DNA of 64,000 nucleotides from Escherichia coli (GTDB lineage Bacteria; Pseudomonadota; Gammaproteobacteria; Enterobacterales; Enterobacteriaceae): NCBI RefSeq assembly GCF_003334815.1, contig NZ_QOWO01000017.1; one strand, given 5' to 3'. Both the position numbers and the translations under genes were made by a program. Below are positions 3,786-4,828 of this stretch, in pieces. Each line of letters opens with the position of its first letter. Positions within the stretch are counted from its first letter, which is position 1. The notes beneath the pieces are model-generated. The model did no database searches. It was not told the DNA's origin and saw only the letters and a list, made by a program, of their open reading frames with translations.

Positions 3786-3932
3786 GGTCTTCTCGCAAGT
3801 CGAAAAATATGACGCTACTTTAGCGTAATTGCTTGATTTTGTCGCTGATGGCGAAGGAGAAGAAAATTCAGGAAATGGATAAAGGAGTTATTTAGAAATG
3901 AGATATTTTTGAAGGAAATTTTTTGGAGAAGA

Positions 3933-3950
3933 TGGTGCATCCGGGAGGAT
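3933..3950 (-). repeat. tRNA-Arg 3'-end fragment (about 17 nt) inside the inter-tRNA repeat unit
   Basis: tggtgcatccgggagga is identical to the 3' end of the full tRNA-Arg copies, then diverges. Confidence 0.7.
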
Positions 3951-4065
3951 GACTCACTGACGTTCGCCCTTCGGGCCGTTGCTGGCGCAACGTTATCCTT
4001 CCTGGTGCCTGCGGTTAATACCGCTATCTCTTCGATACCTTCATTGCTGAAGGTTACGGAGAATA

Positions 4066-4142
4066 TGGTGCATCCGGGAGGATTCGAACCTCCGACCGCT
4101 CGGTTCGTAGCCGAGTACTCTATCCAGCTGAGCTACGGATGC
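4066..4142 (-). tRNA. argV: tRNA-Arg (anticodon ACG)
   Basis: Reverse complement reads GCATCCGTAGCTCAGCTGGATAGAGTACTCGGCTACGAACCGAGCGGTCGGAGGTTCGAATCCTCCCGGATGCACCA. Confidence 0.95.
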
Positions 4143-4205: not shown

Positions 4206-4223
4206 TGGTGCATCCGGGAGGAT
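4206..4223 (-). repeat. Second tRNA-Arg 3'-end fragment inside the inter-tRNA repeat unit
   Basis: tggtgcatccgggaggat matches the tRNA-Arg 3' end; the ~275 bp unit is repeated. Confidence 0.7.
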
Positions 4224-4340
4224 TACTCGCCTTGCGGCTCGCCCTTCGGGCCGTTGCTAAAGCAACGTTATCATCCCTAGTGCCTGCGGTTAATACCGCT
4301 ATCTCTTCGATACCTTCATTGCTGAAGGTTACGGAGAATA

Positions 4341-4417
4341 TGGTGCATCCGGGAGGATTCGAACCTCCGACCGCTCGGTTCGTAGCCGAGTACTCTATCC
4401 AGCTGAGCTACGGATGC
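4341..4417 (-). tRNA. argV: tRNA-Arg (anticodon ACG), second copy
   Basis: Identical 77 nt sequence to the copy at 4066..4142. Confidence 0.95.
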
Positions 4418-4420
4418 AAA

Positions 4421-4513
4421 TGGCGGTGAGGCGGGGATTCGAACCCCGGATGCAGCTTTTGACCGCATACTCCCTTAGCAGGGGAGCGCCTTCAGCCTCT
4501 CGGCCACCTCACC
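4421..4513 (-). tRNA. serV: tRNA-Ser (anticodon GCU)
   Basis: Reverse complement reads GGTGAGGTGGCCGAGAGGCTGAAGGCGCTCCCCTGCTAAGGGAGTATGCGGTCAAAAGCTGCATCCGGGGTTCGAATCCCCGCCTCACCGCCA, a long-variable-arm Ser tRNA. Confidence 0.95.
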
Positions 4514-4575
4514 ACACGCCTCTTACGAGTGCTTCGAAGAACTTGTTTATCGCTCATCGTCGCTGCGTGGCGCAC

Positions 4576-4603
4576 ATATTACTTTCTGAGACTTATAAGT
4601 CAA
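4576..4603 (-). promoter_or_regulatory. Putative sigma-70 promoter of the serV-arg tRNA operon (stringent type)
   Basis: Minus strand reads TTGACT, 16 nt, TAATAT, then GC-rich discriminator GTGCGCC, about 55 nt upstream of the tRNA-Ser 5' end. Confidence 0.5.
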
Positions 4604-4828
4604 ACAATTTTTCCTACACTTTTATCGTTTGCACACTTCACGTTCAATTAGTCTGTAAAAACGTCAAAAAGAGTGTTTTATCAACAGAAGAATGGAGGTC
4701 TGACAGATAGTAGTAATGCAAAAAAATGGAGACTTAAGTTGAATGAACGGGAGTAAAGCGAAAAGACTATAGAGTGAAGGAGAAATTTTGAGGGTGCGTC
4801 TCACCGATAAAGATGAGACGCGGAAAGA

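Follow-up and report, generated by a model that had tools for sequence, protein, structure and literature searches.

A predicted sigma-70 promoter of stringent stable-RNA design precedes the serV-arg tRNA operon of Escherichia coli

The rrnB P1 promoter is the prototype of the stringent, growth-rate-regulated promoter, and tyrT is a classic stringent, Fis-activated tRNA promoter whose regulation has been established by experiment. Work on rrnB P1 showed that a 16-bp spacer, the absence of an extended -10 element, a GC-rich discriminator and a non-G base at the second position after the -10 hexamer give rise to short-lived open complexes, and in the promoters characterised to date such short-lived complexes account for sensitivity to ppGpp/DksA and to the levels of the initiating NTP. 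In the sequences of these two promoters, which we took from E. coli K-12 MG1655, rrnB P1 consists of TTGTCA, a 16-bp spacer, TATAAT and a discriminator that reads GCGCCACC up to what we take to be the start nucleotide, A, and tyrT consists of TTTACA, a 16-bp spacer, TATGAT and the discriminator GCGCCCC, followed by what we likewise take to be the start nucleotide, G. Further upstream rrnB P1 possesses a full AT-rich UP element extending from -59 to -38, and the published Fis sites are, we assume, those centred at -71, -102 and -143 in rrnB P1 and at -71, -91 and -122 in tyrT.

Here we compare these systems with a promoter found in a 64,000-nucleotide stretch of E. coli DNA (the window), in which all features given below lie on the minus strand unless stated otherwise. 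The locus is that of csrA, serV, the arg tRNA genes and yqaB, and the promoter falls within the csrA-serV intergenic region. From csrA to serV the window is 100% identical to K-12 MG1655, and window positions are converted to MG1655 coordinates by adding 2,814,132. The 187-nt promoter region occurs as a single copy in each of 5,426 complete E. coli genomes (at least 95% identity), where no annotated features lie within it. The first gene of the operon is serV, encoding tRNA-Ser(GCU) (4421-4513, with its 5' end at 4513), which is followed by tRNA-Arg(ACG) copy 1 (4341-4417) and copy 2 (4066-4142), all three being recognised by both ARAGORN and Rfam. Two publications name serV-argVYZQ as one operon (PMC13170351, PMC10100675). 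The array of this strain holds two tRNA-Arg(ACG) genes, as does that of MC1061, versus four in K-12 MG1655, and other E. coli genomes carry the array with either two or four; this variation in copy number presumably results from unequal recombination between the 275-nt repeats of which the array is built. The array is also the point at which many draft assemblies break.

Two side observations concern the same part of the chromosome. The T arm of serV (window 4433-4447) has the sequence GGGG-TTCGAAT-CCCC, presumably the type of GC-rich palindromic target that is favoured by IS186. Insertion of IS186 in serV was described in 7 of 8 evolved populations (PMC12107188). On the plus strand, a strong Rfam match (83.9 bits) identifies the MicA sRNA at 1084-1155, as expected in this part of an E. 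coli chromosome.

The core of the serV promoter comprises a -35 hexamer TTGACT at 4598-4603 (5/6 positions versus TTGACA, by direct reading and pattern search) and, all by direct reading, a 16-bp spacer TATAAGTCTCAGAAAG at 4582-4597, a -10 hexamer TAATAT at 4576-4581 (4/6 versus TATAAT, with A2 and T6 present) and a discriminator GTGCGCC at 4569-4575, in which 6 of the 7 positions are G or C. Together the hexamers share 9 of 12 positions with the consensus at a separation within the 16-18 bp expected of sigma-70 promoters. The extended -10 motif TGn is absent, AAG standing in front of the -10 hexamer, and the second base after that hexamer is T and not the optimal G. From the end of the -10 hexamer it is 62 nt to the 5' end of tRNA-Ser(GCU) on the same strand, and the sequence ahead of the promoter (4700-4604) is 66% A+T, versus 46.8% for the window as a whole. 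In a promoter scan of the minus strand from csrA to serV, TTGACT/TAATAT was the one sigma-70-like site returned. The sequence-only reading, which had described these four elements on the minus strand, placed them 5' of tRNA-Ser behind AT-rich sequence and proposed promoter prediction as a check, is therefore upheld: each element stands at the position claimed, the tRNA end is confirmed by ARAGORN and Rfam, and the scan offers no competing site. A second, tandem promoter was sought and rejected, the scan giving none on this strand; a TTGACG at 4667-4662 lacks a -10 hexamer at 16-18 bp when inspected by eye.

Each feature associated with short-lived open complexes at rrnB P1 is also present at serV, namely the GC-rich discriminator, the 16-bp spacer, the absence of an extended -10 element and a second base other than G. 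Both promoters drive stable RNA, in both the second position after the -10 hexamer is a base other than G, and both contain GCGCCAC within the discriminator region (serV GTGCGCCAC, rrnB P1 GCGCCACC). They differ in that serV has the better -35 hexamer (TTGACT versus TTGTCA) and the worse -10 hexamer (TAATAT versus TATAAT), and in that the tandem P2 promoter and boxA antitermination leader of the rRNA operon are absent at serV as far as the promoter scan covers. The hexamers of tyrT (TTTACA/TATGAT) also differ from those of serV, whereas the layout is much alike: a 16-bp spacer, a 7-nt GC-rich discriminator followed by a purine (GCGCCCC-G in tyrT, GTGCGCC-A at the predicted serV start), a leader of a few tens of nucleotides, and an operon containing RtT or RtT-like repeats that end in the 3' end of the tRNA. 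The combination of a 16-bp spacer and a GC-rich discriminator, common to rrnB P1 and tyrT, thus bears out the description of the serV architecture as typical of stringent stable-RNA promoters.

Upstream of the core, the conserved sequence GGAAAAATTGT adjoins the -35 hexamer (4604-4614; 95-100% conserved) and includes an A5 tract at approximately -44 to -40 that is likely to be a proximal UP-element subsite. In contrast to the full UP element of rrnB P1, serV has only this conserved A-tract beside the -35 hexamer. The adjoining segment (4615-4624) is AT-rich in E. coli but only 37% conserved, and no full 22-bp UP consensus is present; given that this distal segment is not conserved, a full UP element is not supported. 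When the region was scanned with the Fis consensus GNNYRWWWWWYRNNC, which has 11 specified positions, three candidate 15-mers were obtained, with centres given relative to A4568: GAACGTGAAGTGTGC at about -70 (4631-4645), GACGTTTTTACAGAC at about -90 (4651-4665; 9/11 specified positions) and GTTGATAAAACACTC at about -110 (4671-4685; 10/11), the last with a conserved block, TGTTGATAAAACACTCTTTTTG, visible in the alignment. At the -70 candidate the positions specified by the consensus are kept in 39-40 of 41 sequences and the N positions are free to vary. The consensus is a loose one, and by shuffling the probability of three matches of at least 9/11 is ~0.02 and that of a single match of at least 10/11 is ~0.18. 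The same scan, at a threshold of at least 8/11, yields 5 matches at rrnB P1, including -71/-102/-143, and 4 at tyrT, including -71/-91/-122. As in rrnB P1, where it corresponds to site I, a Fis-consensus centre lies 35 bp 5' of the first base of the -35 hexamer and further sites follow upstream; the upper sites differ in position (-102/-143 in rrnB P1 versus -90/-110 at serV). In tyrT the lower two correspond to those of serV (-71/-91 versus -70/-90), and the third differs (-122 versus -110). ArgR or CRP was considered for the conserved block at 4647-4627 and set aside, as dyad symmetry is absent by eye and the Fis consensus gives the better fit. Of the suggestion that the AT-rich upstream sequence could be an UP element or Fis sites, what stands is a proximal A-tract and three candidate Fis-consensus sites, and a full UP element is not supported.

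Spacing relative to the -10 hexamer indicates that transcription should start at A4568 or C4567 (MG1655 2,818,700 or 2,818,699), A4568 being the 8th nucleotide after the hexamer, as in tyrT, and C4567 the 9th, as in rrnB P1. The sequence ACGCAG that follows the discriminator is invariant, which is consistent with the predicted start, as is the very short leader of Shewanella. The supplements of Kim 2012, SMRT-Cappable-seq and Cho 2014 have no entry for serV, and a full-text search for the promoter sequence, for 'serVp' and for the expected coordinates retrieved no mapped serV start. From the predicted start the precursor would carry a 5' leader of ~55 nt (4514-4566), for which folding and alignment point to two structural features. 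Its first bases pair with those just before the tRNA in a conserved CGC/GCG closing stem, and a small YUC-GNRA-GAR hairpin stands directly before the tRNA, with one pair that covaries between CG and UA in 7 of 26 sequences. Both structures may have a part in 5' processing. Shewanella has a leader of only ~7 nt.

To place these elements in an evolutionary setting we used a comparative set of 80 loci around CsrA homologues, with one genome per species. The gene order csrA (or rsmA), tRNA-Ser(GCU) and one or more tRNA-Arg(ACG) genes is found in Enterobacterales, Shewanella, Pseudomonas/Stutzerimonas and several marine Gammaproteobacteria. The arrays of Shewanella have up to ~10 tRNA-Arg genes, plus repeated tRNA-Ser genes. 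The promoter is present in 41 of 41 Enterobacterales sequences, three of which have a single-base variant of the -10 hexamer (TAACAT, TAGTAT), and across these 41 sequences conservation reaches 100% for the -35 hexamer, 99% for the -10 hexamer and 98.6% for the discriminator, versus 41% for the upstream flank and 66% for the leader. The spacer has a mean identity of 82%, both of its ends being kept and the middle 5-6 nt being variable, and its length is 16 in all 41 Enterobacterales sequences and in those of Shewanella. No other non-coding block between csrA and serV is as well conserved as the core promoter. The whole arrangement TTGACT-16-TAATAT-GTGCGCC recurs in Shewanella only 14-15 nt before the 5' end of tRNA-Ser, a proximity which indicates that there it serves the tRNA alone. 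In Pseudomonas/Stutzerimonas the corresponding sequence is TTGCAA-16-TATCAT-GCGCCCC, located between the rsmA stop codon and tRNA-Ser, and in Pseudomonas the 65 nt that separate the two are filled by the tRNA promoter. Conservation across Enterobacterales, Shewanella and Pseudomonas argues that a promoter with a 16-bp spacer and GC-rich discriminator before tRNA-Ser is an old and selected feature of the Gammaproteobacteria. A coding cause of the conservation was considered and rejected: the overlapping open reading frames are mechanical only, the largest being a 98-aa frame antisense to the tRNA, and the indels between conserved blocks are not multiples of three.

Shuffled sequence puts the frequency of the motif in perspective. 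The exact 35-nt pattern occurs once in the window, with 0 expected in shuffles. A relaxed motif (at least 5/6 in the -35 hexamer, at least 4/6 in the -10 hexamer and at least 6/7 G+C after it) is found at 2 sites in the window versus 2.6 +/- 1.7 expected from dinucleotide shuffles, so that by itself the promoter motif is within chance expectation for 64 kb. For one strand of the 315-nt csrA-serV spacer the expectation is ~0.006 (the shuffle mean scaled as 2.63 x 315/128,000), and the location of the motif together with its near-invariance across an order of bacteria exceeds chance.

The operon resembles that of tyrT in a further respect. The 275-nt arg repeat is made up of tRNA-Arg, an element of 133-135 nt and a 62-nt spacer, and repeat comparison and Rfam, together with folding for the first copy, define two RtT-like structured elements in the window, at 4206-4340 and at 3933-4065. 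Each RtT-like element starts immediately after the CCA of the tRNA gene and its 3' end is the last 19 nt of tRNA-Arg (AATCCTCCCGGATGCACCA). Such elements follow tRNA-Arg in Enterobacter, Citrobacter, Pseudocitrobacter, Pluralibacter, Siccibacter, Erwinia and Brenneria, and also in MG1655, and their 3' domain adopts a closed three-hairpin fold of 25 pairs, 6 of which show compensatory changes across genera. The RtT RNA of tyrT likewise follows a tRNA gene and ends with the 3' end of that tRNA, including the CCA, and it shares with the arg elements a core of AACGTTGC-loop-GCAACGGCCCGAAGGGYGAG...CGAGTAATCCT; in their 5' halves the two kinds show no sequence relationship, and the 3' tail comes from tRNA-Tyr in one and from tRNA-Arg in the other. 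The Rfam RtT model (RF00391) aligns with the arg elements over its full length (1-130), with 27.1 and 22.8 bits in the window and 31 and 29.2 bits in MG1655, compared to 133-137 bits for the tyrT copies (rttR); no arg copy reaches the gathering score of 45. On these shared sequence features the arg-linked elements are identified as distant relatives of the tyrT RtT RNA. They are not called by Rfam at threshold, and our literature search found no paper describing them. The RtT RNA of tyrT has been proposed, after earlier work, to modulate the stringent response (bioRxiv 10.1101/2024.07.17.603846).

On the csrA side, the stop codon of csrA is followed directly by a stable hairpin (4796-4821; -17.4 kcal/mol, z -7.25), which is conserved, shows compensatory changes on inspection by eye and lacks a U-run after it. 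The tract that follows on the minus strand (4791-4700) is pyrimidine-rich, with 27% C and 8% G. Judged by composition and fold, the hairpin and the C-rich, G-poor tract look less like an intrinsic terminator than like 3'-end protection combined with a Rho-loading region. The csrA transcripts are likely to end at the hairpin, which would thereby delimit the serV unit on its upstream side. At the opposite end of the operon, the Salmonella serV-argV operon shows massive downstream read-through in a Rho mutant (PMC6797219), from which it follows that termination there is Rho-dependent. In the window a terminator-like hairpin, ACGCTAAAGTAGCGT followed by CATATTTTTC, is seen at 3812-3826, close ahead of yqaB and ~105 nt beyond the final RtT-like element; the tRNA operon could have a weak intrinsic end here.

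Taken together we favour, with a probability of roughly 0.85, the reading that the serV-arg tRNA operon has TTGACT/TAATAT as its sigma-70 promoter and that this promoter shares the stringent, Fis-type design of rrn P1 and tyrT, the regulation being deduced from this design. RNA polymerase would bind the two hexamers across the 16-bp spacer and start at A4568 (or C4567), so that the leader of ~55 nt would be transcribed first, and then tRNA-Ser(GCU) and the tRNA-Arg(ACG) copies with the RtT-like elements between them. By the design of the characterised promoters, short-lived open complexes would render transcription responsive to ppGpp/DksA and to the level of the initiating NTP, and in fast growth a boost in activity would come from the A-tract beside the -35 hexamer together with the three Fis-consensus sites (about -70, -90 and -110). 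It is from the promoter architecture that we infer the start site, ppGpp/DksA sensitivity, Fis binding and alpha-CTD binding. Published data touch on the operon at two points: the serV-argVYZQ precursor RNA is among the transcripts down-regulated by NaF, along with rRNA and other tRNA operons, and the regulator table of the same study has no Fis or ppGpp entry for serV-argVYZQ and does have entries for several other tRNA operons (PMC10100675). Regulation of this operon therefore appears to be undocumented in that table, and in the accessible literature we found no direct evidence for control of the serV promoter by ppGpp/DksA or Fis.

How this reading fares depends on what the alternatives make of the same evidence. 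That the hexamers are a functionless chance match to the promoter consensus can practically be dismissed: the relaxed motif is indeed as frequent in shuffles as in the window, but the comparative data refute this explanation, since the promoter is conserved from Escherichia to Arsenophonus and in Shewanella with fixed spacing, and always stands 5' of tRNA-Ser while the neighbouring sequence diverges. A functional promoter could instead contribute little, the serV-arg tRNAs being made mainly by read-through from the csrA promoters. The hairpin after csrA, having no U-run, is not a canonical intrinsic terminator, so that some read-through into serV may occur, and csrA and the tRNA genes are adjacent on the same strand in most of the Gammaproteobacteria sampled. 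Even so, we consider read-through an improbable main source. The promoter is the most conserved non-coding sequence of the intergenic region and its spacer length is invariant; in Shewanella it lies several hundred nucleotides from csrA, directly before the tRNA; and demand for these tRNAs would be expected to lie far above what the mRNA promoters of a regulator could supply. The conserved 3' hairpin and the Rho-loading-like composition of the tract behind it also suggest that csrA transcripts probably end before the tRNA promoter is reached.

The alternative that bears most directly on the regulatory part of our reading is a functional sigma-70 promoter that is constitutive, without ppGpp/DksA, growth-rate or Fis control. 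The near-consensus -35 hexamer, which stabilises RNA polymerase binding, and the missing regulators in the table of PMC10100675 would fit such a promoter, which we nonetheless regard as unlikely. The sub-optimal 16-bp spacer is invariant and is shared, with the discriminator, by rrnB P1 and tyrT; the Fis-consensus sites are arranged in an rrnB P1-like geometry and their pattern of conservation follows the consensus; and the precursor RNA is NaF-down-regulated in the company of the rRNA operons (PMC10100675). The discriminator is dispensable for recognition by the polymerase and is yet 98.6% conserved and GC-rich in three orders of bacteria, which argues that the kinetic property it confers is what selection keeps. 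In place of a constitutive promoter we thus retain the stringent, Fis-type promoter as the best explanation. Near-invariance across the Enterobacterales goes beyond the needs of sigma-70 recognition, taking in the spacer ends, the A-tract, the discriminator and positions +1 to +6. Although speculative, and in our view a long shot, an extra factor might bind the core promoter and the RtT-like RNAs, co-transcribed with the tRNAs, might at the same time feed back on stable-RNA synthesis in the manner proposed for the tyrT RtT RNA, in which case the tRNA operon would be a regulatory node and not a passive target of the stringent response.

The serV-arg promoter is itself ordinary and already known in kind, a textbook promoter type in a stretch identical to that of MG1655, and the sequence-only reading was right to offer it as supporting annotation and not as a novelty; it is a matter of correct annotation rather than discovery. 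Its prediction fixes where the serV-arg tRNA transcription unit of this strain would start, and accounts for the way in which tRNA-Ser(GCU) and the major tRNA-Arg(ACG) would be supplied in step with growth rate. Of modest comparative value is the finding that the core promoter persists from Escherichia to Shewanella and Pseudomonas, along with a sub-optimal spacer of 16 bp and a discriminator rich in G and C; this illustrates that selection acts on the kinetic design of stable-RNA promoters as such.
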